Of a stretch of 64,000 nucleotides of DNA, positions 14,524 to 28,356 are shown in pieces. The stretch covers positions 6,333 through 70,332 of the forward strand of contig CAYYWX010000001.1 of the NCBI GenBank assembly GCA_964475405.1, in the 5' to 3' direction. The DNA is from an uncultured Verrucomicrobiota bacterium (GTDB taxonomy: Bacteria; Verrucomicrobiota; Kiritimatiellia; JAAZAB01). The notes beneath the pieces were generated by a model. It was not told where the DNA came from, did not search any database, and was given only the letters and a program-made list of their open reading frames with translations. Within the stretch, counting starts at the first letter, position 1; every line of letters begins with the position of its first letter. Both the position numbers and the translations under genes were made by a program.

Positions 14524-15327
14524 TTAAAACTGGTAGGAAACGCCGATGCTGAGCACCGGGTAGAACCGGAATTTGTCGGCCTGGTTTTGCGCGTCGTCCT
14601 CTTCCTCCTGGAGGTCCGCGAGGAAAGTCGCGTCTTGCGACTTGGTGCCGTCCGCGCTCAGACTGACGCTGGGCGTGCCCTGGAACACGACGCCCAGGTC
14701 AAAGACAAAATTCCAGGCGGTATCCGGGCCGCCGACGGCGTTGCCGAACCCGATGCCGACATAAGGCCCGAAATTATTGAATTTTACCGAGCCGCTCAAA
14801 GTGCCGACTTCCTCGGGCGTGTAAAAATGCTCGCCGATCTTCTGGACGGCGTTCAGCGTGGCGTCCAGATCGCCGCGGTTGCGATTATAAAGCACGCCGC
14901 CGCTGACCCGGAAATTGTTGCCGAACGGATGCCAGTCCAGCATCAGCGGCACGGAAGCCCATTTGACATCCACCTTGTATTCCAGGTCATGGATGGTAGT
15001 GGTGAACCGCAGCGGCAGGTAATTGCCACCCACGCGCAGGTTGAGATATGATTCGACCACCCCGACCGTTACTTCCACTCCCGGGCCAAGCGTGCCGATC
15101 TTGATCGCCGCCCCGATCCAGGGCGGATAATATTCCGTTTCTTCCATTTCAAGGTCGCCGGTCTTGATCGTGGTCGTGGTGGTGGTGATGACCGTTGTTT
15201 TTTTCGCGGCGGAAGAATTGCCATCCGGGACCTCGCGCCCGGCTGCCGCGGCGTTTTGCACCAGAAGCCCGCCCGGGGCGATTAATCCGGCAAGAACAAG
15301 AGCGAGACAAGCGCGATTATATTGCAT
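14524..15327 (-). CDS. Outer-membrane beta-barrel protein (OmpA-like/opacity-family 8-strand barrel)
   Basis: Signal peptide (ACLALVLAGLIAPGGLLVQNAAAA), alternating amphipathic beta strands with aromatic girdle residues, and a C-terminal ...VSYQF ending in Phe. Confidence 0.7.
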   Translation of the reverse strand: MQYNRACLALVLAGLIAPGGLLVQNAAAAGREVPDGNSSAAKKTTVITTTTTTIKTGDLEMEETEYYPPWIGAAIKIGTLGPGVEVTVGVVESYLNLRVGGNYLPLRFTTTIHDLEYKVDVKWASVPLMLDWHPFGNNFRVSGGVLYNRNRGDLDATLNAVQKIGEHFYTPEEVGTLSGSVKFNNFGPYVGIGFGNAVGGPDTAWNFVFDLGVVFQGTPSVSLSADGTKSQDATFLADLQEEEDDAQNQADKFRFYPVLSIGVSYQF

Positions 15328-15351: not shown

Positions 15352-18300
15352 CTACTTGATTTCAATCTTCATGATCCTGGTCTCATACGGCGCGAGGGTC
15401 ATGGTCGGGCTATCTTCCTTCGCGGCGGCGTTGTAATTCCAGATCGCCTTGATCGGGGTGGCTGCCGGGGCGGTCAACTTAACCTCCACACTCTTGCCGG
15501 TGGTGTTGGCCAGGTAGGTCAGGAGCGCGCCCTCCGCGGACACGGTGCGCGATTCAACGCCCGGCGGGTAGCCGCCGTCCGGCGTGAAGGCCCGGACCGG
15601 ACGCTGGAAACGCAAGTCATCCATCAACCGGTCCAGGAGCGCCCGGCGGCTGTCCACCGTGAGCTGGGCCGCAAGGTATATGACGCGCCCCCTGCCGACC
15701 GGGCGCGAGAGGATTGCCGGCTCCCCGCTTCCCGCGTAGGTTGCCATGACCTGCCAATCCGCGGAGGCCTTCACGCTCTGGATGACGCCCGCCGCGTCAA
15801 GGTTCTCCGGCGCGGCGGCCAGGAATCCGCTCTTCTTGACGGCAACCGTGCGCTTGGGTTCCTTTGAGACGATCGTCTTGGCGACCGGTCCCTGGATGAA
15901 ATCCAGCTCGCCGGTCTGCGCGATGCCCGGCTTGGCTTCCCCGGCCTTGATCTCGGGCAGTTCCTCGGCAAGCAGTTCCAGGCCGAGGTTCCCCAGGTAA
16001 TCGCGCTTGCGGTTGTATTCGTCGGCCACGAGCGAGGTCGGCGTAATGAGCAATGTGCCGCCGCCGGCGACCCATTCCTTAAGCCTGACAAAGACATCCT
16101 CTTCCACGTAGCGGCAGCCGGGGATGACGACCAGCTTGAAGTTGGCCGGGATATTCTCGCGGACGCGGCGCGAGGAAACGAAACCGACCGGCGCGTCAAG
16201 CCGCACCGCGGCCTGGTAGGTCTTCTCCATCTCCAGCGCATAGGGCGTCTTGTGTCCCTGGGTCCGGGGATCGAGCTGGATCAGGGTGGCGCGTGGATAT
16301 AAAAGGGCTATTTCGGCCGGGGCATCCGGGAACGGCGCGATCTGTTTCGCGAGGCGGCGGACATCCAGGGCCGTGCGCATGACCGTGCCCACTTCCTCCA
16401 GTGAGATTGTCGCGGAATGCCGCAAGGCGCTGTTGTCAAACTCCCCTTCACCCGGCGGCCACCACCAGTAATCCATCATTCCGCAGCCGTGGAGGAACAT
16501 GAGGAAGCAGGTGTTCGGCAAGGCATGATATTCCGGGTCAAGGATGGGGACCGGACGGGAGACGAGGTGCCGCTGCAAATCCATCACGCTCGTTACGCCC
16601 AGCGCCCGGCTGCCGGTTTCCGACAGGAATATGTCGTTGACCCCGTCGCGGATCAGGCCCTCCTCGTCAATGCCCTGCCGCCAGAATCCGCTCCCGAACG
16701 GTTCGCCGCCGCCGGTCGTCAGCGGGAGGCCCGGCGCGGCCTTGTTGACTTCACTCTTGGCCCATTTCATGTAATCCGTGAAGCGCCAGAGGTTGAAATC
16801 GCCGAAGTCGTAATACTTGGCCGGGTTGGGTTCCGTCTTGTCCGGCGCATACTCCGACAGGTTAATCTCCTTGAAATCCTTGAAGGCCGTCTTCCAGACG
16901 GCATTGAGTTTTTCCACGCTCCCATACTTGCGCCCGAGCCACTGGCGGAAGAGGTCGGCGGAATAAACGTCGTAATTCACGTAAGAATATTCAAAACCGA
17001 CGTTCACGTAAAGGTTGCCGGGCTTGACGCCCTGGCGCTGGCCGTAGCGGGCAATGGATTTGGCGATGGCCTCGCGCATCTTCGGGCTATCAAGGTTAAT
17101 GACGCAACGCTCCCTGCTGCCGCCCGCGGAGTACTGGTCGCAGATGATGTGTCCGCACCAGCCGCCGTCATAGACGCGGTGGGTCTCGGGATATTTCTGG
17201 TAGGCCTCCCAGACCGGCGTGCTCTGCACGTCGTAGCGGCTCGCGCCGACGGCCGAAATGCTGTAATGATGCGTCCGCGGGGAAAACCAACGTATCAGCT
17301 CGCCGGAGTTATGATACTGCATTGAGAAAAGTATTTTCGGCTCGTCGCCCTCGCAGAAGTAGCGTCCCTTCAATTTTAGTTTCGTGAAGTCCGGGTGGGG
17401 CGGCACCTTGATGTCCGGCGCCTTGCCGGCCATGATGTCCTTCAGGCGCCGGGCGGCCACTTGGCTGGATTGAAGAATGTAGGCCGCGTTCGTCCCGCGC
17501 TGTCCGAGATGGTTTGGCAAATCCCAGCGCACATTAAAGGCAAGAGCGCTTAAAACAATTGGAATCTCGTCGTAAAGAGTTTCAACGCCCCTGGTCTTGG
17601 CCTCCGCCACGACGGTTTTCAACTCCGCCAGGGCCTGCTCCGCCTCGGCGCGGCGCGCGCCCTGCTCCGGCGTTTCCGTCACCAGCGGCGGATCAGCCTT
17701 CATTTCCCGCCCGGTCTCGGCCAGCGTTACGCCGCACTTGGCGTCAAGGTCCATTCCCGTAAGGCTCACATCGTCCACCCAGACACGGCCCCGGCCCTTG
17801 CCGGACAACTGGATGAAGACTTTCACGGCGGGGCACTTGTCGGGCACGTCAAACACCAGCTCCGCCCTCGTCCAGGCGTAGGTGCCCGGCAAGGTCATGA
17901 CCGCGTCGGGAAGGGGTCGCTCGCCGGAATCCGTCACCAATATGCTGGGCACGCCCTGGCCCTGGCTCTGCACGTAGGCGGTCAGTTTCAGGCGGGTGGG
18001 ATATTGCACCGGGATGAGCGGCGAGAAAAATCCGATTTTGCACGGGCCCCTGGCGTCAAGCATCGCCGAGGCGCTGCCGGAATAAACGGCCTTCTCTCCC
18101 TTCCCCAGGAAACTCCGCCCTTCCCAGCGCCGGGCGTTCCACCATTTGAACGGATTGCCCAGGGCATCGGGCGTTTGCAGATCCTCAAACGATCCGTTGA
18201 CCAGGAGTTCCTTGTAGGGCATTTTTACCATGGCGGCCTTAGGAATCACGGGAGGGTTCTCGGAAAGGTACATGTTGTCAATATAGACCATGATCTCTTG

Positions 18301-18813
18301 CGGGCAATTCTTGTAGAGGCAGATGAACGCCACGTTGCCGCGGTCCAATTCAACCCGGTTCTTGAGATCATCCAGGTCAATGGTGAGCGTATTGACCCCC
18401 GGGCCGAGGATGAACGATGATTCGGCCTTATGGAACGCCTTGTCGCGGATCCAGATTCCGAACTCGGCCGGCAGCTGGCCATCAAGGAAGACGTCAACGT
18501 TCAGATACCTGAACCCGGTCCAGTCGGAAGGCATCTTGTCCGTCAGGATATTGGACCACTCGGGCTTGTTGGTGTAATAAACCTTCAGCGACTTTTTGCC
18601 CTGTGTGACGTGCCTGGCAGAAACTTCAAACGGCGAATGATTTTCGCTTTTCCAGATGGAAGCATCCTCAAAATCAACGATGCTTTTTACGCGGCCCACG
18701 CCGGACGGCGGGGCATCCGCCCCGGACGCGCAAATTGCCCCAATTCCCAGGACAGTGATCATGGCCAGTATTCTCCCCCGCAGTTGCATATGATTATTCC
18801 TTTCAAAGGACAC
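15352..18813 (-). CDS. Large secreted glycoside hydrolase, GH42-like beta-galactosidase architecture with N-terminal beta-sandwich (CBM-like) extension
   Basis: Signal peptide. The segment FRQWLGRKYGSVEKLNAVWKTAF resembles the conserved GH42 motif (F..WL..KYG....LN.AW). A C-terminal glutamine-amidotransferase-like trimerisation-type segment (VRLKEWVAGGGTLLITPTS). Assignment to GH42 is by motif recall only. Confidence 0.6.
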   Translation of the reverse strand: MSFERNNHMQLRGRILAMITVLGIGAICASGADAPPSGVGRVKSIVDFEDASIWKSENHSPFEVSARHVTQGKKSLKVYYTNKPEWSNILTDKMPSDWTGFRYLNVDVFLDGQLPAEFGIWIRDKAFHKAESSFILGPGVNTLTIDLDDLKNRVELDRGNVAFICLYKNCPQEIMVYIDNMYLSENPPVIPKAAMVKMPYKELLVNGSFEDLQTPDALGNPFKWWNARRWEGRSFLGKGEKAVYSGSASAMLDARGPCKIGFFSPLIPVQYPTRLKLTAYVQSQGQGVPSILVTDSGERPLPDAVMTLPGTYAWTRAELVFDVPDKCPAVKVFIQLSGKGRGRVWVDDVSLTGMDLDAKCGVTLAETGREMKADPPLVTETPEQGARRAEAEQALAELKTVVAEAKTRGVETLYDEIPIVLSALAFNVRWDLPNHLGQRGTNAAYILQSSQVAARRLKDIMAGKAPDIKVPPHPDFTKLKLKGRYFCEGDEPKILFSMQYHNSGELIRWFSPRTHHYSISAVGASRYDVQSTPVWEAYQKYPETHRVYDGGWCGHIICDQYSAGGSRERCVINLDSPKMREAIAKSIARYGQRQGVKPGNLYVNVGFEYSYVNYDVYSADLFRQWLGRKYGSVEKLNAVWKTAFKDFKEINLSEYAPDKTEPNPAKYYDFGDFNLWRFTDYMKWAKSEVNKAAPGLPLTTGGGEPFGSGFWRQGIDEEGLIRDGVNDIFLSETGSRALGVTSVMDLQRHLVSRPVPILDPEYHALPNTCFLMFLHGCGMMDYWWWPPGEGEFDNSALRHSATISLEEVGTVMRTALDVRRLAKQIAPFPDAPAEIALLYPRATLIQLDPRTQGHKTPYALEMEKTYQAAVRLDAPVGFVSSRRVRENIPANFKLVVIPGCRYVEEDVFVRLKEWVAGGGTLLITPTSLVADEYNRKRDYLGNLGLELLAEELPEIKAGEAKPGIAQTGELDFIQGPVAKTIVSKEPKRTVAVKKSGFLAAAPENLDAAGVIQSVKASADWQVMATYAGSGEPAILSRPVGRGRVIYLAAQLTVDSRRALLDRLMDDLRFQRPVRAFTPDGGYPPGVESRTVSAEGALLTYLANTTGKSVEVKLTAPAATPIKAIWNYNAAAKEDSPTMTLAPYETRIMKIEIK

Positions 18814-18840
18814 CTTACCAGTTTATGGCCGGGAAGCGAA

Positions 18841-20472
18841 TTATTTTCCCGGGCCGCCGATGCAATACAGATACCTCTGCGCCCGGTAGAAGATATTGTT
18901 GCCGTCAAAGAACGGGGTGCTCACCGTCCCCTCAAGCGTATTGTTCCCATAGTAGTAATTGATGCGCTGGTCGATGGTATTGCGTCCGACTTCCTTGTAT
19001 TCCCGGCCCGGCTCAAGGATCAAGGTCGTCCCGAAGTTGCCGACCAGGAATATTTTCCCCCCGGCCAGGGCCGGCGAGGCGGCCATCCCGCAGCCATAGG
19101 GCCGGTCATTGCGCAACGGCTCATTGCCGAAGTCGAGATTTTTGCTGTAAACGACCTTTTCCGTCAGGACATCGCAGACGAATAACAACATTTGGGGACC
19201 CAGCGCCGGTTTACCTTTGCTAGGCATGATCGGATTGTTGCCGCAGACATAAAGCAACCCGTCGTGATAAAGCACCGAGGGCACCACGTGGCGTCCGCCG
19301 TCGGGCGGGACCAAGGCTGTTCCCTTGATTACCGGCTTGAACGGCGCGTCGGCCTTTTCGGGCAATTGATAATAACGCACCGGGCTGCCGTTGTTCGCTG
19401 TGCTGACGCCGCCCATGCCCTCCATCCAGAAAACAAATCCGCCGCCGAACACCGGCGATCCCTTGCCGGTATGTATGAGGGCGCCCTTGGAAAAACAGAC
19501 ACCGTCCGAGGCGCGGATCAGGCTGCCGTCGCCGGCGGCGAACACCTTTTCACCCCCAATGACCGAGCTGACATGGGAGGCAAACCACCAGGCACCGCCC
19601 TTGAGGTCCGTTCTCCAGGCGTCCTTGCCGGTTTTCTTGTCAAAGGCCAGGTATTGCCGGCCGACATAAGTGATCACCAGGTCGCCGACCAGCAGGGGTG
19701 AACCGTAATGGCCGTGTTCCTGCGGCACAAGCTTGTCATAACGGATCCATTGGCGGTTGCCGTCAAGGTCAAAGCAGGCCGTCACGCCCCAGCCGTTCCA
19801 GGCAAAAACAAATTTTCCGTCGGAGACCGGGGTGGCGGCCATGAATCCGCCCTCACCCCCTATTCCGCTCTTATAGTTCTTGTCCAAGTTGCCGGCGGCG
19901 ACGAGGAGTTTGATCACCTCGCCATTCATCACCCCGTCAATCTTGGATATTTCCCCGCCCAATTGGAAAACTCCATTCGTTCCGGGATCGGTTATTTTCG
20001 CAAGGAGCGCATCGCGCTGTTGCGCCTGCTGGTCCAGCTTGTCAAAGACCTCCTTGTTCGCTTCGCGTTCTTCCTTCGTCGCGGCGTCATAGGGACTGAC
20101 CGGCTTGACCCACAGGATTTTACCCGTGAGTTTATCCGCGCAGATCAATTCATAGTTGTTGCCGGTGGCAAAGAGTTTGTCGCCGACCGCGATCACGGAG
20201 CTGGGAGAGTCAAATGGCATAATGGTCCGCCAGGCGATATTAGTCCCCTTGCCGTCCTTCAGGCTCCAGTTCATGGGCGGGGTGGCGCCGGAAAATTTTC
20301 CCGTGCCGTCCCCGCGCCAGCCGACCGGCTGTTCGGGCGACGGGCGGAAGTCCGGCGAACCCAGCAGCGCGTCCTTGGCCGCGACCGTTGTTGAAACGCC
20401 GAAGATTAAAACCGCGAAAGCCAGGCCGGCGGCCTGGATCGTTCTTCTCGTCTTGTTCGGGTCAATTTTCAT
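18841..20472 (-). CDS. Secreted PQQ-like beta-propeller repeat protein, paralog 1 (BamB/PQQ-repeat superfamily)
   Basis: GGGAGA RBS. Signal peptide, then the family N-motif LGSPDFRPSPEQPVGWRGDGTGKFSGATPPMNW. PQQ-like repeats (A.DK.TGKILW). Its C-terminal ~65 aa are near-identical to paralog 2. Confidence 0.8.
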   Translation of the reverse strand: MKIDPNKTRRTIQAAGLAFAVLIFGVSTTVAAKDALLGSPDFRPSPEQPVGWRGDGTGKFSGATPPMNWSLKDGKGTNIAWRTIMPFDSPSSVIAVGDKLFATGNNYELICADKLTGKILWVKPVSPYDAATKEEREANKEVFDKLDQQAQQRDALLAKITDPGTNGVFQLGGEISKIDGVMNGEVIKLLVAAGNLDKNYKSGIGGEGGFMAATPVSDGKFVFAWNGWGVTACFDLDGNRQWIRYDKLVPQEHGHYGSPLLVGDLVITYVGRQYLAFDKKTGKDAWRTDLKGGAWWFASHVSSVIGGEKVFAAGDGSLIRASDGVCFSKGALIHTGKGSPVFGGGFVFWMEGMGGVSTANNGSPVRYYQLPEKADAPFKPVIKGTALVPPDGGRHVVPSVLYHDGLLYVCGNNPIMPSKGKPALGPQMLLFVCDVLTEKVVYSKNLDFGNEPLRNDRPYGCGMAASPALAGGKIFLVGNFGTTLILEPGREYKEVGRNTIDQRINYYYGNNTLEGTVSTPFFDGNNIFYRAQRYLYCIGGPGK

Positions 20473-20567
20473 AATTATTCATCTCCCTTTCATGTTGTTC
20501 ATTTCTTCACACCGCTCGGAAACGGATTTACTTGTTTTTTAGAACTCCTCAGTTAATGTGGGCTAAT

Positions 20568-20636
20568 TGTCATTCCCGACTTGATCGGGAATCCTGAAAA
20601 AGCAATACTGGATTCCCGCTTTCGCGGGAATGACAG
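20568..20636. repeat. Nested inverted-repeat (MITE/REP-like) element between the GH20 gene and paralog 1
   Basis: The element gtcattcccga-cttga-tcgggaat ... ggattcccgc-tttc-gcgggaatgacag contains two inner hairpins (attcccga/tcgggaat and attcccgc/gcgggaat) bracketed by outer arms gtcattccc/gggaatgac. A half-copy (cgggaatgacattat) occurs at ~14337. Confidence 0.5.
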
Positions 20637-20658
20637 TATTGAAGTTCACAACCTGCCC

Positions 20659-22743
20659 TCATAACTGAGGAGTTATGTTTTTCCGGTACGCGGCGATATA
20701 ACGTTTCAGCCGCGAGCGGTATCCCTCCAAATCGAGCAACTGCTCATCCAGGATCAGGTAAGTCATGTCCGCGGTGCGGTTGGCAAAGTGCCGCGCCCGG
20801 TCGCGGGCGTGCAAATATCTCCGGCCGGGCAAGGACAGTCCCTTGGGCAAACGGGTCCGTTCCCAGAGACGGACAAGGCCGGAGAAGACCCGCTCGCGGT
20901 CGGCGAGGTGATCGCCGATCATCCGCGCGGCCCGGCGCAGATGCCCCAGCGCCGCGCGCCGGTCGGAAAAATGTTCCCCGGACGCCAGGCAAACGGCGTG
21001 TTCCAGTTCCCCGAGCATCAGGATCAGCCCGGCATTGTGGCGCATCAGTTCCGCGACGGACCGCATCAACTCAAGGTCGTGGCGATTCCGCGCGCCGCGC
21101 GAGAGGTTGTCGGCAATGATCGCCTCCGCCCGGAGAAGGGCGTGCTGTTCCTGGAGCGCGCGTTGGGTCAGCGCCCGGTAACGGTTTCGCCAGAAATTGC
21201 TGATCTCAAGGCCGGCGCGCGGGAAATCCGGAAGGTGGATCTTGCCCACGTCGCCGTGATGCCACACGTTGCGCTGGAAAGTGTCGTAATAAAATTCCGC
21301 CGAGTTTTGCAGAAGCGCATAAAGTTCCGGCAGGTCGCGGCCCTCCGGGCCAAAATAGCGCAGGAAAAACCGGCGCGTCCAGCCGGCAATATCGCGTTCT
21401 CGGGCATTCCAGGAGAATTCCGCCCCGCAGACGAAACGCCCCATCCACATCCGGGTGTGAAGGCCCGAGTCGTCCCACGATGTAATGATCGCGCCCTCCA
21501 CGGCCCCGGTCCGCGCCGCGGCGGCGATTGAGGCCGTCTCTTTGAACGTCCCCTGCCGCTCGCATCCCGGCTCGTTCTGCCACATGGACCGCTGCACCCA
21601 GGGAAAATGCGGCAGGAAAAGCGGGGTGATGCCGGGGTTCGGCGCGTAAGTCCAGAGCGCGCGCCCGGCGGCGCGCGCCGCCGCCAAGCTTTCATTATCG
21701 CCGAAAGCCACGCTGACCATGGACTCCGAGGCCGGGTGTTTTGCTCCGGCCTGCCACTGGCCGCCCCACGAGATTGCTTTCCGTCCGCGCTTTTCCACGT
21801 GCGCGACGCAGCGGCTGAGAAAGTCCTGCATCAGCTCGTCCTTCCCCGCCACCCCGGCCCGCGCCTGGCATCCGCACTCCGCGCCCTGGCCCAGTTCGTA
21901 AGTCTCGTCGCAGCCGATGTGAATAAACTCGCTGCCCGGGGTGGCGGCGATGGCCTCGTCCCAGAGATCAAAGAGAAGGCGTAACGAGCCATCCTTCAGC
22001 GGGCAAAATTCCCAGTTGGAATCGGAAATCTCCCGCAGATGCCGGTGCCGGGGATGCTTGAGGATGAACGACACGTGCCCGAGTCCCTGGACGAGCGGCA
22101 CCAGCTGGACGTGATGCTTGAGCGCCAGGCGGGCAAAGGCGCGCACCTGGCCCGGCGTGAAGGCGCCGGGAGCGCCGATTTCCGGGTGACGGCGGTAGGC
22201 GAACTTGTCCTCCCATTCCCAGACCAGCACGTTTATTTTCCAGGACGCGAGTTGGAGGATGAGGTCCCGAACATAGGCAGCGGTGGGCTGGTGGTGCTTG
22301 GTGTCGTAATGAATGGCGCGATATTTCAGGTCGGGCCAATCGTTGATTTCCAGGCACGGGGCCATGACGGCGTCGCCTTCCCGGCGCAAGCACTGTCGCA
22401 GGGTCTGCATGGCATAATAGACGCCGGCGGCATCGCCGCCCTCCAGGACGATTTGTCGCGGTTGAATGGTCAAGCCATAGCCCTGCGGCGGGCGTCCACT
22501 GCCGCGCTTGATGATGAGCTTCACGCGTCCCGGACCGGACCGGCCTTTCGCCACACGCGCCTCCAGCCCGCACTCGGAGCGCAGGCAGCGGCCCAGGTAC
22601 CCGGCCGAGAACCGGTCTTCAGCCGGGGCATCGGGAGCGAGCACGATTGAGATTCCCCGGGAGAGGCGGCAAAAACCTCCGGCCGCCCGGACTTCCTGCG
22701 GCTCGGGAATCAGCGCCAACTCTGGCATTTCGCCGCGTTTCAT
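20659..22743 (-). CDS. Glycoside hydrolase family 20-like beta-N-acetylhexosaminidase
   Basis: GH20 catalytic (beta/alpha)8 signature H-x-G-x-D-E present as HIGCDETYELGQG, with the upstream GH20b-like N-domain. Its ATG overlaps the stop of paralog 2 (ATGA), so the two are translationally coupled. Confidence 0.7.
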   Translation of the reverse strand: MKRGEMPELALIPEPQEVRAAGGFCRLSRGISIVLAPDAPAEDRFSAGYLGRCLRSECGLEARVAKGRSGPGRVKLIIKRGSGRPPQGYGLTIQPRQIVLEGGDAAGVYYAMQTLRQCLRREGDAVMAPCLEINDWPDLKYRAIHYDTKHHQPTAAYVRDLILQLASWKINVLVWEWEDKFAYRRHPEIGAPGAFTPGQVRAFARLALKHHVQLVPLVQGLGHVSFILKHPRHRHLREISDSNWEFCPLKDGSLRLLFDLWDEAIAATPGSEFIHIGCDETYELGQGAECGCQARAGVAGKDELMQDFLSRCVAHVEKRGRKAISWGGQWQAGAKHPASESMVSVAFGDNESLAAARAAGRALWTYAPNPGITPLFLPHFPWVQRSMWQNEPGCERQGTFKETASIAAAARTGAVEGAIITSWDDSGLHTRMWMGRFVCGAEFSWNARERDIAGWTRRFFLRYFGPEGRDLPELYALLQNSAEFYYDTFQRNVWHHGDVGKIHLPDFPRAGLEISNFWRNRYRALTQRALQEQHALLRAEAIIADNLSRGARNRHDLELMRSVAELMRHNAGLILMLGELEHAVCLASGEHFSDRRAALGHLRRAARMIGDHLADRERVFSGLVRLWERTRLPKGLSLPGRRYLHARDRARHFANRTADMTYLILDEQLLDLEGYRSRLKRYIAAYRKNITPQL

Positions 22744-24413
22744 TTTTCGCTGGTCCCTTCCGGCTCGCCAATGCAGTAAAGATGCCTCTGCGCCCGGTAG
22801 AAAATCTTGTTGCCGTCAAAAAACAGGTTACCTACCGTCCCCTCCATCCTGTCTTCCTTATAGTAGTAACTGATGCGCTGGTCGATGGTATTGCGTCCGA
22901 CTTCCTTGTATTCCCGGCCCGGCTCAAGGATCAAGGTCGTCCCGAAGTTGCCGACCAGGAATATTTTCCCTCCGGCAATGGCCGGCGAGGCGGCCATCCC
23001 GCAGCCATAGGGCCGGTCATTGCGCAAGGGCTCATTGCCGAAGTCGAGATTTTTGCTGTAAACGACCTTTTCCGTCAAGACATCGCAGACGAACAATATC
23101 ATGTTCTCTTCCACTCCCCGCTTGCCGCCGCCGCGGGTGATGGTCGTACTGTTGCCGCAGACATAAATCAAACCGTCGTGATAAAGCGGCGAAGGCACCA
23201 CGTGGCGCGCGGTTTCGGGCACTTCCAGGGCCGCGCCCTTGATGGCCGGCTTGAACGGCGCGTCGGCTTTTTCGGGCAGTTTATAGTAACGCAACGGACT
23301 GGTTAATGACCCATATCCATCCAGCCAGCAGACATACCCGCCACCGGCCACGGGCGATCCCACGCTGGGATGCCAGCAGGCGCCCTTGGCAAAACGGCCG
23401 CCGTCGGCAATGGTCATCAGGCTGCCGTCGCCGCCCACCATCACTTTTTTACCATCAATGACTGTGCCGACCGGCGAGGCAAACCACCAGCCGCCCTCGC
23501 CCGGACCCGCCTTATGATCCGTTCTCCAGATTTCCTTGCCGGTTTTCTTGTCCAGCGCCAGGTATTGCCGGCCGACATAAATGATCACCAGGTCCCCGGA
23601 AAGAAGGGGCGAGCTGTAATGGCCGTGCTCCTGCCAGGCGAGCTTGTCAAAGCGGATCCACTTGCGGTTGCCTTCAAGGTCAAAGCAGGCCGTAACGCCC
23701 CACCCGTTCCAGGCGTAGACCAAAGCGCCGTCCGAAGCCGGCGTGGTGCCCATGAACCCGCCTTCGCCCGATATCCCGGGGCCCTTGTATTTTACCTTGT
23801 CGGACGCGGCAAGGAGTTTCATCATCTCGCTGTCGTTCTTGGTTATTTCACCGCCCAGCTTGAAAATTTCGTTGGAGACCGCCGCGGCGGCGACGGCCGG
23901 CATCTTCGCGAGGAGCTCATCGCGCTTTTGCGCCATTTTATCCAGGTTGTCAAAGAGCTCCTTGTTGGCCTCCCGGTCTTCCTTCGTCGCAGCGTCATAG
24001 GGGCTGACCGGCTTGACCCACAGGATTTTGCCCGTGCGCTTCTCCACGCAAATTAGCTCGAAGTCGTTGCCGGTGGTGAAGAGTTTGTCGCCGACCGCGA
24101 TCACGGAGCTGGGAGAGTCAAGGGGCATCCGGACCTGCCAGGCGATATTGGTCCCCTTGCCGTCCTTCAGGCTCCAGGTCATGGGCGGCGTGGCGCCGGG
24201 AAAATGCCCCGTGCCGTCCCCGCGCCAGCCGACCGGCTGTTCCGGCGAAGGGCGGAAGTCCTTTGAACCCAGCGGCGCGTCCTTGGCCGCGGCCGAAGTT
24301 GAAATGCCGCACATTAAGACCGCGAAGGCCAGGCCGGCTGCCGGGATTATCGTCCTCGCAAAATTCAGGTCAATCTTCATTATCTGTTTTCCTTTCAGGG
24401 AACTCATGGTCAC
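22740..24413 (-). CDS. Secreted PQQ-like beta-propeller repeat protein, paralog 2
   Basis: Signal peptide plus N-motif LGSKDFRPSPEQPVGWRGDGTGHFPGATPPMTW. PQQ repeats (CVEKRTGKILWVKPVS). The 3'-terminal ~200 nt are essentially identical to paralog 1. Confidence 0.8.
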   Translation of the reverse strand: MTMSSLKGKQIMKIDLNFARTIIPAAGLAFAVLMCGISTSAAAKDAPLGSKDFRPSPEQPVGWRGDGTGHFPGATPPMTWSLKDGKGTNIAWQVRMPLDSPSSVIAVGDKLFTTGNDFELICVEKRTGKILWVKPVSPYDAATKEDREANKELFDNLDKMAQKRDELLAKMPAVAAAAVSNEIFKLGGEITKNDSEMMKLLAASDKVKYKGPGISGEGGFMGTTPASDGALVYAWNGWGVTACFDLEGNRKWIRFDKLAWQEHGHYSSPLLSGDLVIIYVGRQYLALDKKTGKEIWRTDHKAGPGEGGWWFASPVGTVIDGKKVMVGGDGSLMTIADGGRFAKGACWHPSVGSPVAGGGYVCWLDGYGSLTSPLRYYKLPEKADAPFKPAIKGAALEVPETARHVVPSPLYHDGLIYVCGNSTTITRGGGKRGVEENMILFVCDVLTEKVVYSKNLDFGNEPLRNDRPYGCGMAASPAIAGGKIFLVGNFGTTLILEPGREYKEVGRNTIDQRISYYYKEDRMEGTVGNLFFDGNKIFYRAQRHLYCIGEPEGTSEK

Positions 24414-24445
24414 CTCCGTTAGCTTTTGATTGTTAAATTGAAAGT

Positions 24446-26623
24446 TTACTGTTTCTTCCCCTGTTCCTCAATGCAATACAAATTTTCCTCCCCGCGAAAG
24501 TACATGCGATTGCCGTCAAAGACAGGCGTGCTGGTCATGGTATTGTCCTGGTACTCGGGACAGTACTTCCTGTTGCACCAATATCCATAGTTGCCGAGCG
24601 CCCGGCCGCTTCTGGCAAGGTATTGAATCCGGTTGCGGGCGACTTCTTCATACGTGCGCCCCGGCTTGATGACTATCGTCACGCCGGTCGCTCCCATCAG
24701 GTAGATGTGCCCGCCGGCAAGAGCCAGGCTCGCGCCGAAATAACTGCGTTGATGCGCGGCCGCAAAAAGATCAATCGGCAATTCCTTCTGATACACGCCT
24801 TCCATGGTCACCACGTCGAAAACCTTCAACACTCCATCGCCGCTCACGGTATACCCCAGGCCATCATAAATTAACGGGGACGTCACAAGACTTTTGCCCT
24901 GGTAGAAGTTCAATCCCAACGGCAACTGCTCCGGCAATTTCACGCTTTGCCCTGGTTGTTTGATCGCCAGGCCGTTGTTGGTGGTTGCCTCGACCGTATA
25001 TTTAAGGACACCATCCGGAGAGTTTTGCCATGCCGCATCCCCCTCAAAGATCGGCGTGGAAACCCAGTTGCCCCAGCCTTGCGAGCCGAAGACCTGTCCA
25101 TCCCGGGCGCGCACGAGAATATTGCCGCCGGGACACAGGACGTATTCAGTATCTTTGAACACCGCCCGGCTGAGCGAACCGCCCCAATTCCGCCAGCCCT
25201 TGGTTTTACTCGCGTTTTCAAGACCCACGCTCCACTTCGCCGAGCCGTCGGAGAGGTCAAAGGCCGTGATGGTGCCGTCCATAATGACAAACTTCCTGTC
25301 GGCAATGACCGGCGCGCTGTAGTAGCCATGATGCTGGTACTTCGGCCTTTCGTAGCGTATCCAGCGGCGTTTGCCGTCCAGGCCGTAACAGGCTCTTGTT
25401 CCCCGTGTCAGCCATACAAAAACGCCGCTGCCTTCGGAGGCCGGCGTCGGAATCGTCCACCAGTCCGGCTCGCCCTGCTCGTCGGGCCGCTTGTACTTCA
25501 CGCGGTCCACCTCAAGCATAATTTTGTCCAGCTCGTTTTCAAGCTTAGATTCTTCTTTCACCGCGGCCTCGTCGGGCTGTTTTCCAAGCAAATAGTCTTG
25601 ATAGAAAAGCTCGCGCTTGGCCGCCAGCGGATCCAGCTTGGCGAAAACTTCCGGCTTGGCCTTGCGTTCCTCGGGCGTGGCGGCATCGTAGGGACTGTTC
25701 TGCCGGATCCAAACGATCTTGCCCGTCTTCTTGTCAACGCAGACCAGGTTGTAGGGATGGGCCATGGTGAACAGGAAATCGCCCGCGATGATCGGGTTGG
25801 CCTGGGTCAGCCCCGGCATTCGAACTATCCAGGAAATATTCGTGGAAGCATAGTCGCGCGGTTCTTCCGACGGCCAGAACCGGCAGCGCACAAAACACGT
25901 TTTCGGAAAATCAAAATTGCCCATGCCCATACGGGGCGTCAACTTGAACAGGAAACGGTTCCAGCCCGCCTGAAGCTGCAATTCCAGGGTGGGCCCCATG
26001 TCGCCGCCTCCGTTATTGACGGGGGTGTCGGGATTGGTGTATTCCCTCGCGCCGTTCAGCCACAACACCAATCCCCTGGCATGGTTCAGATGGAACCAGA
26101 TCTTGGCCGGCTTCTCAACATACAGGCACGCCTGCGCATACGCCGCCTGATCATTGGTCATAATTCCCAAGGGGCGAAAAAGGTCTATAAAGGAGTCTTC
26201 CACCTTGACCATCTGCCAAATTGCGTTGCCAAGTTTGTCGCCTTCCCGCGGTGCGAACGACGCTTCCCCGGGCATCACTTCCTGCGCGATCGCGTTGGTC
26301 AGACCGGCGCACGAAAACGGGCCGGCCACAAGCCACTCCGTGAAAAATCCCGTCGTGGCCGGGGTTGCGCCGGCGGATGAATTGTCCTTCGGCGCGGCGG
26401 CCGCGCATTTCAAGTCGCCAAGTTGCTTCAGGCTGCGCCCCCAATGCACGGGAGGATTGGCGCCAGGATATTTTCCCGTGCCGTCCCCGCGCCAGCCGAC
26501 CGGCTGCTCGGCGGATACTCGGAAATCGGGCGAACCCAGAACCGCATCTTTGGCCATGATTGTTGAGATGTTGAATGTTAAAAGTGCCAACGCCAAACTG
26601 GCCGTCATAATAATCTTTTTCAT
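24446..26623 (-). CDS. Secreted PQQ-like beta-propeller repeat protein, paralog 3, with inserted beta-sandwich (galactose-binding-like/CBM-like) module
   Basis: Probable true start at MKKIIMTASLALALL (track ORF extends to 26737). N-motif LGSPDFRVSAEQPVGWRGDGTGKYPGANPPVHW. A ~200-aa insert (FFTEWLVAGPFSC...WFHLNHARGLVLWLNGAREY) lies before the propeller repeats (VCVDKKTGKIVWIRQNS). Confidence 0.75.
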   Translation of the reverse strand: MKKIIMTASLALALLTFNISTIMAKDAVLGSPDFRVSAEQPVGWRGDGTGKYPGANPPVHWGRSLKQLGDLKCAAAAPKDNSSAGATPATTGFFTEWLVAGPFSCAGLTNAIAQEVMPGEASFAPREGDKLGNAIWQMVKVEDSFIDLFRPLGIMTNDQAAYAQACLYVEKPAKIWFHLNHARGLVLWLNGAREYTNPDTPVNNGGGDMGPTLELQLQAGWNRFLFKLTPRMGMGNFDFPKTCFVRCRFWPSEEPRDYASTNISWIVRMPGLTQANPIIAGDFLFTMAHPYNLVCVDKKTGKIVWIRQNSPYDAATPEERKAKPEVFAKLDPLAAKRELFYQDYLLGKQPDEAAVKEESKLENELDKIMLEVDRVKYKRPDEQGEPDWWTIPTPASEGSGVFVWLTRGTRACYGLDGKRRWIRYERPKYQHHGYYSAPVIADRKFVIMDGTITAFDLSDGSAKWSVGLENASKTKGWRNWGGSLSRAVFKDTEYVLCPGGNILVRARDGQVFGSQGWGNWVSTPIFEGDAAWQNSPDGVLKYTVEATTNNGLAIKQPGQSVKLPEQLPLGLNFYQGKSLVTSPLIYDGLGYTVSGDGVLKVFDVVTMEGVYQKELPIDLFAAAHQRSYFGASLALAGGHIYLMGATGVTIVIKPGRTYEEVARNRIQYLARSGRALGNYGYWCNRKYCPEYQDNTMTSTPVFDGNRMYFRGEENLYCIEEQGKKQ

Positions 26624-26667
26624 TTTTTCCTTTCTATCCAAGGTGGCATATAGCCGCGACCGAATTT

Positions 26668-26705
26668 TCAGATTCCCCGCACACTGTGCGGGGCTACAGT
26701 TGTTT
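26668..26705. repeat. Double-hairpin module (copy 1): ccccgcaca-ctg-tgcgggg followed by gctaca-N10-tgtagc
   Basis: Perfect IRs seen in sequence. A second copy of the same two-hairpin arrangement is at ~29862-29900. Confidence 0.4.
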
Positions 26706-26913
26706 ATTTGTAGCGCGTCACCAGGCTCCGCCGCCATGTCCCGCCGGAGCGGCTTCGCGTAGGGGGAAGCGCTTCCGCCGTCGCCCTGTAGTTAAGCGAA
26801 GCGTATACTACAGGGCTATGGTGGACAAGTCGCCCAGGCGAGCAATGTGACACGTTGTTTTCTTCTTCTACAAAAGCGCCATATGTTTAAATGGAACTAT
26901 GTGTCTTTCTTAT

Positions 26914-28356
26914 TCATCGCACTCCATAAATTGTGCCCGCCCGGATGTTTTCATAGGCGCCCATGTCAACGGTGCCGTAGCGGATGCGCGCGCGGCCGTC
27001 CAGATCCCTGCTCGTGACGCTTCCATCCCTCATCCAGGAAAGATTCGTCCCGGCGTTGACGCACGGCGAGCGCCCTGAAAGGCGGTAATTACCGGCAACA
27101 TGGTTCGTCCCGTAGTCGCTGCCCTTATCCAGCAACATCGGATCATCGGTGATATTCCCGGCCCCGGCCGCGGCGGGCGCCGTGCAGCTATTTACGAAAG
27201 TGCATCCGGTCCAGTTTGAGATGCTGGCGCCGCCGGAATTGAAATATACGATGCAATTAGACAGAGTGCCGCCATACACTCCGCCGCCGCCGGTGCCGCC
27301 GGTCGCCTTGTTACCGACCAGTGTGCAATTATACAGCTTGCTTGCGGCTGATGATCCGGCGCCGCCGCCATAACCGGCATGGTTGCCAGTCAATAAACAG
27401 TTATACAAAGTGCTGTCATACGCCCCGCCGCCGGCCATGCTGTCTGACGCCCTGTTGCCGGTCAACGTGCAGTTATACAAAATGCAAGAGTGAACGCCAC
27501 CGCCATAGTTTTCAGTCGCCTGATTGCTAATCACCGAGCAGTTATACAGGGTGCCACCATATGCCCCGCCACCAGCGCGCGCCGTATTGGCCGTAAGCGT
27601 GCAATTAGACAAAACGCAGCCGCGGCCACCGCCGCCGTACTTTCCAAGGTTGCCGGTCAACGTGCAGTTAACCATGATGCTGTACGCCGCGCCGCCGCCA
27701 TGGGTGGCATTAAGAGCAGGCGCGCCATATGTCATATTGCCGATCAGCGAGCAGTTATGCAACGTGCCATACCATACTCCACCACCTCCATAGTTGCCGG
27801 CCAATCCGCCGTAGGCCGAGTTGCCGGTTATGATGCAATTGGATATCACCGGGGTCGTGATGGCGGGACAATACACGCCGCCGCCGCAGCCGGACAGGCT
27901 CTCCACGCTCAACGTGGCGCCATTGGTGATTGTAAAACCGATCAAGGAAGAATTGGCGGCCATATAAACGCAACGAACAGCATTCGGGCCGTTGGTATTG
28001 CCGTCCGAGGCCCAGGCGCCCCTGATGATCGTATTTGTCGGATTGTTGTCCTTGCTCCTGACAGTGATCGCCTTGGTGATCGCAATCCGGTTGGTCAGGA
28101 TCGAGCCGGCGGGGTAATTCGTGACACCGCCGGAGGCATATATCCCATTGCTGACCCAGATCGTGTCGCTCGCCGCGGATTTGTCTATTGCGCCCTGGAG
28201 ATTGTTGGTGGCGTTCGCCCAGCCATTTGTCCCCAGGCCGGTCCCATTCGTCGCCACATACCAATCAACCGCCGGCGTTGTCCTGAGCAAACTAATCAAT
28301 AAAAACGCCGCCAGGCATACTTTCCACCGCATGCTACTTTTCGTTTTCATTATCAT
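26914..28356 (-). CDS. Secreted right-handed parallel beta-helix repeat protein (pectate-lyase-fold, glycine-rich LYNC(T/S)L(T/I)GN repeats)
   Basis: Signal peptide. About ten tandem ~22-aa repeats (GGGAY..TLYNCTLTGN...). C-terminal ...GTVDMGAYEN ending characteristic of this family. Confidence 0.7.
   Translation of the reverse strand: MIMKTKSSMRWKVCLAAFLLISLLRTTPAVDWYVATNGTGLGTNGWANATNNLQGAIDKSAASDTIWVSNGIYASGGVTNYPAGSILTNRIAITKAITVRSKDNNPTNTIIRGAWASDGNTNGPNAVRCVYMAANSSLIGFTITNGATLSVESLSGCGGGVYCPAITTPVISNCIITGNSAYGGLAGNYGGGGVWYGTLHNCSLIGNMTYGAPALNATHGGGAAYSIMVNCTLTGNLGKYGGGGRGCVLSNCTLTANTARAGGGAYGGTLYNCSVISNQATENYGGGVHSCILYNCTLTGNRASDSMAGGGAYDSTLYNCLLTGNHAGYGGGAGSSAASKLYNCTLVGNKATGGTGGGGVYGGTLSNCIVYFNSGGASISNWTGCTFVNSCTAPAAAGAGNITDDPMLLDKGSDYGTNHVAGNYRLSGRSPCVNAGTNLSWMRDGSVTSRDLDGRARIRYGTVDMGAYENIRAGTIYGVR

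Follow-up and report, generated by a model that had tools for sequence, protein, structure and literature searches.

Two neighboring propeller genes in the window (the whole 64,000-nucleotide stretch that was analyzed) share a nearly identical segment close to their 3' ends, across an intervening glycoside hydrolase gene. Does this identity date a recent duplication, or have old tandem paralogs exchanged sequence in place? The initial annotation, which was made from the sequence alone, named both possibilities. Our analysis indicates that the shared segment is very probably the product of interlocus gene conversion between old tandem paralogs.

Organization of the p1-GH20-p2 locus

All three genes lie on the minus strand. 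From its open reading frame (ORF), Pfam, AlphaFold and Foldseek, paralog 1 (p1; 18841..20472) is predicted to encode a 543-aa secreted PQQ_2/BamB-like 8-bladed beta-propeller, and paralog 2 (p2; 22740..24407) is predicted to encode a 555-aa propeller (ORF and Pfam). Between them lies a gene for a GH20 family glycoside hydrolase (20659..22743), which exceeds the Pfam cut-off for both Glyco_hydro_20b (75.4 bits) and Glyco_hydro_20 (47.1 bits). The likely start of p2 is the ATG at 24407, which is preceded by GGAGG, in an ORF that stays open up to a GTG at 24413. Both p1 and p2 are full-length, each with a start codon and a ribosome-binding site, and identical proteins exist in the public collection (P0001 and P0002, respectively). 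The two genes form direct repeats with a start-to-start distance of 3911 nt, and the first 4 nt of the GH20 gene are also the last 4 nt of p2. Since the genes share a strand and the gaps at the locus range from -4 to 186 nt, a single operon for p1, GH20 and p2 is plausible. A scan for internal promoters and terminators returned weak consensus matches only, and terminator-like sites were not more common than in shuffled sequences.

The two propeller genes are set among glycoside hydrolase genes. When synteny was compared in the closest relatives (L002-L006), GH20 or GH42-like genes stood beside the propeller in none of the five.

Both proteins match Pfam PF13360 (PQQ_2), with 42.2 bits for p1 and 43.9 bits for p2 against a cut-off of 27.6. 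The AlphaFold model of p1 (pLDDT 81, pTM 0.85) is an 8-bladed propeller, for which the nearest folds in Foldseek are BamB and tetrathionate hydrolase. Structures of 8-bladed BamB/PQQ_2 propellers (PDB 3prw and 3q7m; tetrathionate hydrolase, 6l8a) have the same fold, with a Foldseek probability of 1.0 and a target-normalized TM of 0.6-0.73, but their sequence identity to the propellers here is only 10-13%. Beyond the BamB/PQQ_2 fold, the propellers here have a helical hairpin (residues 127-192) and an N-terminal family motif, LGSPDFRPSPEQPVGWRGDG(S/T)G, and, unlike BamB/PQQ_2 proteins, they are encoded among glycoside hydrolases. Two more specific identities were rejected. For BamB itself, TIGR03300 gives 23 bits where 285 are required, and the proteins here are 150-200 aa longer and lie in CAZyme clusters; for PQQ-dependent dehydrogenases, TIGR03075 gives 21 bits against 480, and PF01011 gives 15-19 bits against 26.7. 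On sequence and model, p1 and p2 are thus best described as predicted secreted BamB/PQQ_2-like 8-bladed propellers of unassigned function. The window holds five propeller paralogs in all (p1-p5), and their signal peptides are similar.

A 234-nt patch is nearly identical in p1 and p2

Over their full length, p1 and p2 are 78.7% identical in nucleotides and ~70% identical in amino acids. Homology does not extend past the ORFs into the flanks, as expected from an old duplication. Within the genes, the p1 copy of the patch (18949..19182, minus strand, codons ~431-508) and the p2 copy (22860..23093, minus strand) agree at 228 of 234 nt (97.4%), the six mismatches falling at 18959, 19060, 19066, 19068, 19117 and 19167, while identity elsewhere in the two genes is ~62-91%. 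The near-identical 3' segments described in the initial annotation are thus confirmed, as is its view of the pair as a mosaic rather than uniformly diverged. The shared run that it quoted, a 99-nt string, is exact and occurs exactly twice (18961 and 22872). The longest exact run in the patch is 100 nt; a run of this length is expected by chance given six differences (P = 0.24), and a nested, newer event within the patch was therefore rejected.

The edges of the patch are sharp: identity falls to 77% over the 100 nt that follow on the 3' side and to ~69-74%, gaps allowed, in the 5' flank. By zone, nucleotide identity is 84-91% in the 5' part, 62-84% in the center and ~74-79% in the last ~35 codons. 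Consequently, the earlier statement that the N-terminal and central parts are very different applies to the center, but not to the N-terminal part, which is the second most similar zone. A further claim, that the segment encodes an identical C-terminal blade, needs a similar adjustment: the patch peptide (LFVCDV...YYY) is the same in p1 and p2 except for one L/I and one N/S difference, but the patch, at p1 residues ~432-510, is modeled by AlphaFold as ~1.5-2 blades immediately before the last blade.

The patch is reproduced in a second assembly

Short-read metagenome assemblies such as these are known to suffer errors at paralogous repeats, and reads of the two paralogs could have been mixed over a conserved stretch, so that nearly the same sequence was written twice. 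We regard such an artefact as extremely improbable. A second assembly made with another assembler (ENA ERZ909578; L001, a k127 contig of 8.25 kb from run SRR2177954 of a groundwater project) reproduces both patch copies base for base, such that two different pipelines agree at every position, and this one contig spans both copies. Since the longest shared run is shorter than the k of 127, the assembly graph is unbranched at the patch. Moreover, the six fixed differences between the copies would not be preserved under collapse, and the reading frames of p1 and p2 are both intact.

The two assemblies sample one population. They differ by 0.11% overall and by zero within the patch, which already carries six differences between p1 and p2 (a silent-site divergence, dS, of 0.087). 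Conversion that still continues in this population, as the initial annotation had it, is accordingly a conjecture. In the GH20 gene, the assemblies are distinguished by a 115-bp cluster of nine mostly silent substitutions. An exact 41-nt search of metagenome contigs gave no match; the population sample thus consists of L001 only.

The drop in silent-site divergence is specific to p1 and p2

Could selection have kept the two copies alike with no recombination at all? Strong purifying selection on the protein, combined with nucleotide-level selection on an embedded RNA, a promoter or an antisense element, would have to account for the patch. Protein conservation in the family is indeed highest in the patch and in a zone at the 5' end, and the many invariant residues of the patch include R454, D456-G460, S466 and P467. 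In addition, a weak sigma-70-like match lies within the p2 copy (23078-23049), and antisense ORFs overlap both copies.

The silent sites, however, largely refute this explanation. Between p1 and p2, dS (Nei-Gojobori; patch and rest compared by Fisher test) is 0.087 in the patch vs 0.519 in the rest (P = 5e-6) and 0.56 in the center (P = 1.8e-6). For comparison we used P0003 and P0004, the two closest homologues, which come from another metagenome (nearest homologues are 67-71% identical). At the same patch codons, the other five pairings with these proteins have a dS of 0.42-0.63, which is 0.5-0.8 times their own background, with a dN/dS of ~0.2-0.26. The patch region is therefore not intrinsically slow at silent sites, and the six-fold drop in dS is specific to the p1-p2 pair. 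Nor do the other candidates fare better: Rfam found nothing on either strand of 18000-25000 at E values up to 1, the -35 hexamer of the promoter-like match itself includes the mismatch at 19167, and the edges of the identity profile are step-like rather than a gradient. Protein conservation alone, judged from these comparisons, does not account for the patch, and we consider selection without recombination very unlikely.

A GENECONV-style permutation over polymorphic sites identified a p1-p2 fragment at codon columns 466-543 with a score of 37, which was reached in 0 of 10,000 shuffles; no pair other than p1-p2 was significant. Because the center is strongly diverged between the two paralogs (dN 0.21, dN/dS 0.38), p1 and p2 are probably functionally distinct.

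An older homogenized zone at the 5' end

The second zone of reduced divergence runs from the signal peptide through the first blade. It lies at 20209..20439 (minus strand) in p1, as delimited by dS and fragment permutation, and at 24117..24347 (minus strand) in p2, as delimited by dS and by the repeat families D2 and D4 at 86-88%. Here, the p1-p2 dS is 0.24, vs 0.56 in the center (P = 0.006), and all other pairs have a dS of 1.0-1.5. The permutation P value of the 5' fragment, with the main patch masked, is 0.00085. Zones that differ in age (dS 0.24 vs 0.09) suggest recurrent conversion. We also considered conversion involving p3-p5, whose 5' similarity amounts to 71-81% in nucleotides across 78-178 nt; since this similarity is mostly the family-wide motif LGSPDFRPSPEQPVGWRGDG, it was not counted as evidence.

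Segment trees place patch and center differently

Neighbor-joining bootstraps with 14 outgroup homologues unite p1 and p2 as sisters in 99% of replicates in the patch and in 0% in the center (residues 151-431). The center tree instead joins p2 with P0004 (89.5%), while p1 and P0003 are joined in only 35.5% over the whole center; in a clade-specific insertion region, the same groupings reach 93% and 83%, respectively. Segment trees of this partly moderate support suggest that p1 and P0003, and likewise p2 and P0004, are orthologues. Relatives were also sought by genome scan: p1 alone as the query found none, and alignment A1 found 202, mostly in Planctomycetota MAGs, the best being 52% identical.

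Recent duplication, the other possibility named in the initial annotation, does not survive these results, given a dS of ~0.5 outside the patch and a center in which neither paralog is closer to its neighbor than to a homologue found in a different metagenome. A rival version reverses the mosaic, with p1 and p2 as young duplicates whose true age is that of the patch, and with the divergent center and tail acquired later by one copy, through homologous recombination, from related organisms. The grouping of the p2 center with the foreign P0004 rather than with p1 is compatible with this, and the cluster of nine substitutions in GH20 shows that short imports do occur in the putative operon. However, at least three separate imports would be needed (one for the center, one for the tail, and one for the part that separates center and 5' zone), sparing exactly the most conserved segments, from donors ~25% diverged, which is well past the usual limits of homologous recombination. 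Furthermore, the homology ends at the ORF borders without shared flanks, and low-dS zones of different ages (0.24 and 0.09) fit successive conversions better than a single date of duplication. We therefore judge the reversed mosaic improbable.

Altogether, the pair-specific six-fold drop in dS, the significant GENECONV-type fragment and the conflicting segment trees favor gene conversion between tandem paralogs, as the initial annotation had proposed. The picture of an old duplication followed by two patches is blurred by one observation: center dS is lower within genomes (0.56 for p1-p2; 0.55 for P0003-P0004, if these two come from one genome) than between genomes (0.73-0.84), which could reflect shared codon bias or an older homogenization of the whole gene.

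Proposed course of conversion

For the main patch, we infer one event, in which ~234 bp in one copy, the codons of about two blades near the C-terminus, would have been replaced by those of the other copy. One or more earlier events would have homogenized ~230 bp at the 5' end. RecA-type strand invasion may have involved two misaligned sister chromosomes or a single chromosome, with pairing starting where purifying selection on the protein had kept both DNAs similar enough. The heteroduplex would then have been resolved or repaired without crossover, halting where divergence became too high. The coincidence of the converted zones with the most conserved protein regions fits such homology-dependent initiation.

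As for the direction of transfer, the shared patch agrees with P0004 at 23 sites and with P0003 at 13, a nonsignificant difference that points weakly to p2 as the donor. A third-party donor was rejected: among the listed homologues, the best other match to the patch has 81% aa identity.

The initial annotation also regarded the repeats as a substrate for deletion of the GH20 gene. Given their direct orientation and the 100 nt over which they match exactly, deletion by crossover between them would be mechanistically reasonable. At 90% identity, P0001 and P0002 each form a cluster of one; this minimal sample contains no chimeric p2::p1 protein.

Relation to known systems

In the pilE/pilS system of Neisseria and the vlsE system of Borrelia, silent, truncated donor cassettes convert variable regions that are framed by conserved ones. 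The likeness to the present locus would be non-reciprocal transfer between nearby homologous sequences. A programmed antigenic-variation cassette was nevertheless rejected here, given that both copies are complete, apparently expressed genes and that conversion has affected the conserved segments, which is the opposite pattern.

Other counterparts are found among concertedly evolving bacterial duplicates, which include tuf (tufA/tufB), tandem fla and others (PMC6053082). In these, paralogs of one genome are kept more alike than orthologues through recurrent non-reciprocal recombination, as may also be the case here, and they too are detected by gene trees that contradict the species tree. In those duplicates, however, the whole gene is homogenized and the copies are functionally equivalent, whereas here homogenization is limited to two ~230-bp segments of ~1.65-kb genes.

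Short conversion patches between members of a large paralog family, yielding mosaic genes, are also reported for antigen and virulence-associated loci of M. tuberculosis, where short-read assemblies tend to under-detect such patches (PMC13061034, PMC12046097). Compared with these loci, the organism and the protein family differ, and the patch here lies in the most conserved part and homogenizes rather than diversifies.

Implications for the propeller family

The event is of an ordinary, well-known kind in bacterial genomes, and the locus provides a new instance of it, with no new mechanism. The conversion finding itself says nothing on what the propellers do. One speculative reading, which we consider doubtful, is that the homogenized segments are more than a neutral by-product: the 5' end and the near-C-terminal blades would be a shared module for closing or docking the propeller, which conversion together with selection keeps uniform across paralogs. 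In such an arrangement, the signal peptide and the first "velcro" strand at the 5' end, together with the blades near the C-terminus, may let all copies fit one shared partner (the neighboring glycoside hydrolases, for instance, or the machinery for export or anchoring), and the central blades may be free to diversify for different glycans. This would fit the similar signal peptides of the five paralogs in the window and the consistent pairing of propeller and CAZyme genes. If true, it would point to a modular family of glycan-recognition propellers in Planctomycetota, each with a constant frame and a variable face.

Apart from that reading, within-genome recombination acts at the p2-GH20-p1 locus, and the 234-bp direct repeat, with its 100 nt of unbroken identity, is a plausible hotspot at which GH20 could be lost and assemblies could break. 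For the family at large, trees and orthology calls mislead unless converted segments are masked. The locus offers a clean, statistically solid case in which segments of genes evolve in concert; the secreted propellers concerned belong to a large, uncharacterized family of uncultured bacteria that degrade glycans.

A near-identical patch in two tandem propeller genes

The genes p1 (18841-20472, minus strand) and p2 (22740-24407, minus strand) are tandem propeller-family paralogs that flank a glycoside hydrolase gene, GH20 (20659-22743, minus strand). They are mutual closest relatives (78.7% nucleotide and ~70% amino acid identity over their full length), and the other propeller-family paralogs of the window, p3 (24446-26737, minus), p4 (29911-32133, minus), and p5 (32396-34495, plus), are ~32% identical to p1. 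On the minus strand, p3 is followed by p2, GH20, p1, and a second glycoside hydrolase gene, GH42-like (15352-18813, minus), with successive gaps of 38 nt, -4 nt, 186 nt, and ~27 nt, an arrangement that appears operon-like from sequence.

The initial annotation had reported a near-identical 3′ segment in p1 and p2, and we found that this segment is real. The 99-nt string quoted there matches exactly at 18961 and 22872, and the full patch (18949-19182 in p1; 22860-23093 in p2) covers 234 nt with 6 mismatches (97.4% identity) and a longest exact run of 100 nt. Its borders are step-like, with identity dropping to 77% over the 100 nt adjoining the 3′ edge and to ~70% beyond the 5′ edge. The same annotation had described the N-terminal part as substantially different, which is wrong, since this part, at 84-91% nucleotide identity, is the second most similar zone.

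An assembly from another pipeline (ENA ERZ909578; k127 contig of groundwater metagenome run SRR2177954, 8,253 bp) spans window positions 17954-26206 and matches both patch copies at every base. With k = 127, longer than any exact stretch that the two copies share (at most 100 nt), the assembler should neither have collapsed the repeats nor have switched paths between them. Given this margin, the concordance of the two assemblies, and the six differences retained between the copies, it is extremely improbable that the patch identity was produced by an assembly artefact.

Across 8.25 kb, this contig differs from the window at nine positions, all inside 115 bp of GH20 (22225-22339, codons 135-173). 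Eight of the nine are synonymous and one is A155V. The cluster is a haplotype patch at strain level, of the kind that short-tract homologous recombination typically leaves, and the window contains no paralogous donor for it.

Only one intergenic gap of the run is sizeable, the 186 nt separating GH20 from p1, and it holds an element (20565-20635, minus; TGTCATTCCCGCGAAAGCGGGAATCCAG...GGATTCCCGATCAAGTCGGGAATGACA) that occurs once in the window. Two ATTCCCG...CGGGAAT hairpins lie between its 11-nt inverted ends, and its predicted RNA fold has an energy of -37.3 kcal/mol (z = -6.1). It has the appearance of a REP- or MITE-like palindrome and might serve as an intra-operon terminator or RNA stabiliser.

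Silent sites, permutation, and segment trees

In an alignment of 18 homologues, no part of the protein is more conserved than the one encoded by the patch. Amino acid identity is therefore no evidence by itself, and the question has to be settled with silent sites and trees. Nei-Gojobori dS between p1 and p2 drops from 0.519 across the remainder of the mature protein to 0.087 within the patch (Fisher P = 5e-6); the central region by itself has a dS of 0.56 (P = 1.8e-6 against the patch). As controls, we used P0003 and P0004, the closest homologues from another metagenome (sample ERZ27256924), which are 67-69% identical to p1 and lie at other loci. In the patch codons, all five other pairings with these two sequences have dS values of 0.42-0.63 (0.5-0.8 of their own background), so the patch region is not intrinsically slow at silent sites. 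Together with the lack of an Rfam match and the abrupt borders of the patch, these control values make nucleotide-level constraint a very unlikely source of the identity.

In a GENECONV-type permutation (10,000 shuffles of the 621 sites polymorphic in the four-sequence codon alignment), the p1-p2 fragment spanning codon columns 466-543 scored 37; none of the shuffles reached this value, and no pair other than p1-p2 was significant. In segment trees (NJ bootstraps, 14 further homologues as outgroups), p1 and p2 are sisters in 99% of bootstraps for the patch and in 0% for the central residues 151-431, where p2 groups with P0004 in 89.5%. Within the insertion region specific to the p1/p2/P0003/P0004 clade (residues 395-431), p1 groups with P0003 (83%) and p2 with P0004 (93%). 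Pairwise values in the 5′ flank of the patch (p1-P0003, 0.78; p2-P0004, 0.82; p1-p2, 0.74) agree with the segment trees. Altogether, the dS drop, the permutation result, and the tree conflict add up to the pattern by which interlocus gene conversion is normally recognised, and this reading is well supported. The proposal of conversion between the tandem paralogs is thus upheld, and the check for uniform divergence along both genes found divergence to be non-uniform.

A second zone and the age of the duplication

Sliding dS delineates an older zone of low p1-p2 dS at the 5′ end (p1, 20209-20439; p2, 24117-24347; both minus), spanning the signal peptide through the first blade. Here, p1-p2 dS falls to 0.24 from the 0.56 of the centre (P = 0.006), all other pairs range from 1.0 to 1.5, and fragment permutation with the main patch masked gives P = 0.00085. 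The two low-dS zones suggest that the pair was homogenised at least twice, at different times.

DNA homology between p1 and p2 stops at the ORF borders. In the centre, they are the most divergent of the six pairs at the protein level (dN 0.214), with a dN/dS of 0.38 versus 0.21-0.29 in the other pairs. The restriction of homology to the ORFs, the central dS of ~0.56, and the central protein divergence indicate that the duplication is old, and recent duplication is therefore rejected as the primary explanation. A young duplication whose divergent parts were imported later from relatives would need several imports from donors ~25% diverged, and these would have to spare exactly the conserved segments, which makes it distinctly unlikely.

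We favor gene conversion within an old pair. Conversion may still be ongoing, as the initial annotation proposed, but the patch copies already differ at six positions, among which a 100-nt perfect run is compatible with random placement (P = 0.24), and no polymorphism within the patch was found between the two assemblies. The shared patch agrees with P0004 at 23 sites and with P0003 at 13, a non-significant difference; there is a weak hint that p2 may have been the donor. Near-identity to the patch was seen in none of the other listed homologues.

Signal peptides are alike in all five window paralogs (MKI.xN...T.IPA.GLA..L..G...), at ~20370-20472 (p1), 24280-24383 (p2), 26530-26629 (p3), 32030-32133 (p4), and 32396-32500 (p5). 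A p4 orthologue at a related locus elsewhere (L003), 76-78% identical, has an unrelated and longer signal region. The likeness could reflect within-genome 5′ homogenisation or a common export constraint.

Possible mechanism and GH20 deletion

Homologous recombination requires a minimal uninterrupted identity, roughly 20-30 bp in E. coli. Where genes have diverged by ~25%, sufficient identical stretches would persist only under the strongest protein constraint. Both homogenised zones are the family's most conserved parts, and in the P0003-P0004 pair, an unconverted proxy, the patch region is among the most nucleotide-similar stretches (0.84-0.88). Strand invasion between the direct repeats would start the exchange, and non-crossover resolution or heteroduplex mismatch repair would then copy ~234 bp from one gene into the other; every conversion would lift local identity and make the next one likelier. 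A crossover within the same repeats would yield an in-frame p2/p1 fusion, with the loss of 3,911 bp including GH20. Such a deletion, also raised in the initial annotation, is a plausible candidate event. No p2/p1 chimera was found in the public protein clusters of p1 or p2 (one member per cluster), and an exact-match scan of metagenome contigs returned no further copies of the locus.

Protein family and meaning of the patch

Both p1 and p2 carry a signal peptide, and both score above cut-off against Pfam PQQ_2. An AlphaFold model (pLDDT 81, pTM 0.85) predicts a propeller of about eight blades in which residues 127-192 form a helical hairpin; by Foldseek, the model is nearest to BamB, tetrathionate hydrolase, and PQQ dehydrogenases (10-13% identity). 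The fold is shared, but BamB and PQQ-dehydrogenase equivalog/subfamily models score ~21-23 bits against cut-offs of 285-480, which places p1 and p2 in neither family. Planctomycetota MAGs contain abundant, multi-copy relatives, and some others occur in Firestonebacteria and Verrucomicrobiota; the best match among species-representative genomes is 52%. In four proteins from other metagenomes (P0032, P0086, P0106, and P0119), the propeller is fused to ECF sigma-factor domains (PF04542, PF08281, PF04545), which hints that it is usable as a sensory or ligand-binding module.

Within 14.5-39.8 kb of the window, propeller genes lie amid the CAZyme genes GH42-like, GH20, and GH127; a BNR/sialidase-like gene lies further along. 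Propeller relatives also adjoin CAZyme genes at two loci elsewhere, with DUF4874/DUF4832 and PcRGLX-like genes as neighbours at one (L002) and GH4 at the other (L003). The setting looks like a polysaccharide-utilisation-type locus that includes an unusual family of accessory proteins, and it is reasonable to guess that p1 and p2 have a role in capturing or processing glycans. The final gene of the run (14524-15327, minus) weakly matches a CarO-type outer-membrane porin model (55.6 bits against a cut-off of 300), and a 480-aa gene upstream of p3 (26914-28356, minus) ends in a choice-of-anchor Q domain; these two genes may contribute surface or export components to the cluster.

Bacterial duplicates are well known to undergo gene conversion and concerted evolution, as in tuf, rRNA operons, and tandem fla (PMC6053082), and two reports describe segmental conversion in multigene families of M. 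tuberculosis (PMC13061034, PMC12046097). In contrast to the tuf type, conversion between p1 and p2 is segmental and acts between copies that are probably diverging in function; unlike programmed cassette systems, which convert variable parts, it hits conserved ones. The patch is thus a well-supported new example of a known process, in a protein family that is still uncharacterised. While not surprising to specialists, the case is a caution for phylogeny and assembly, and the patch repeats are a candidate deletion hotspot.
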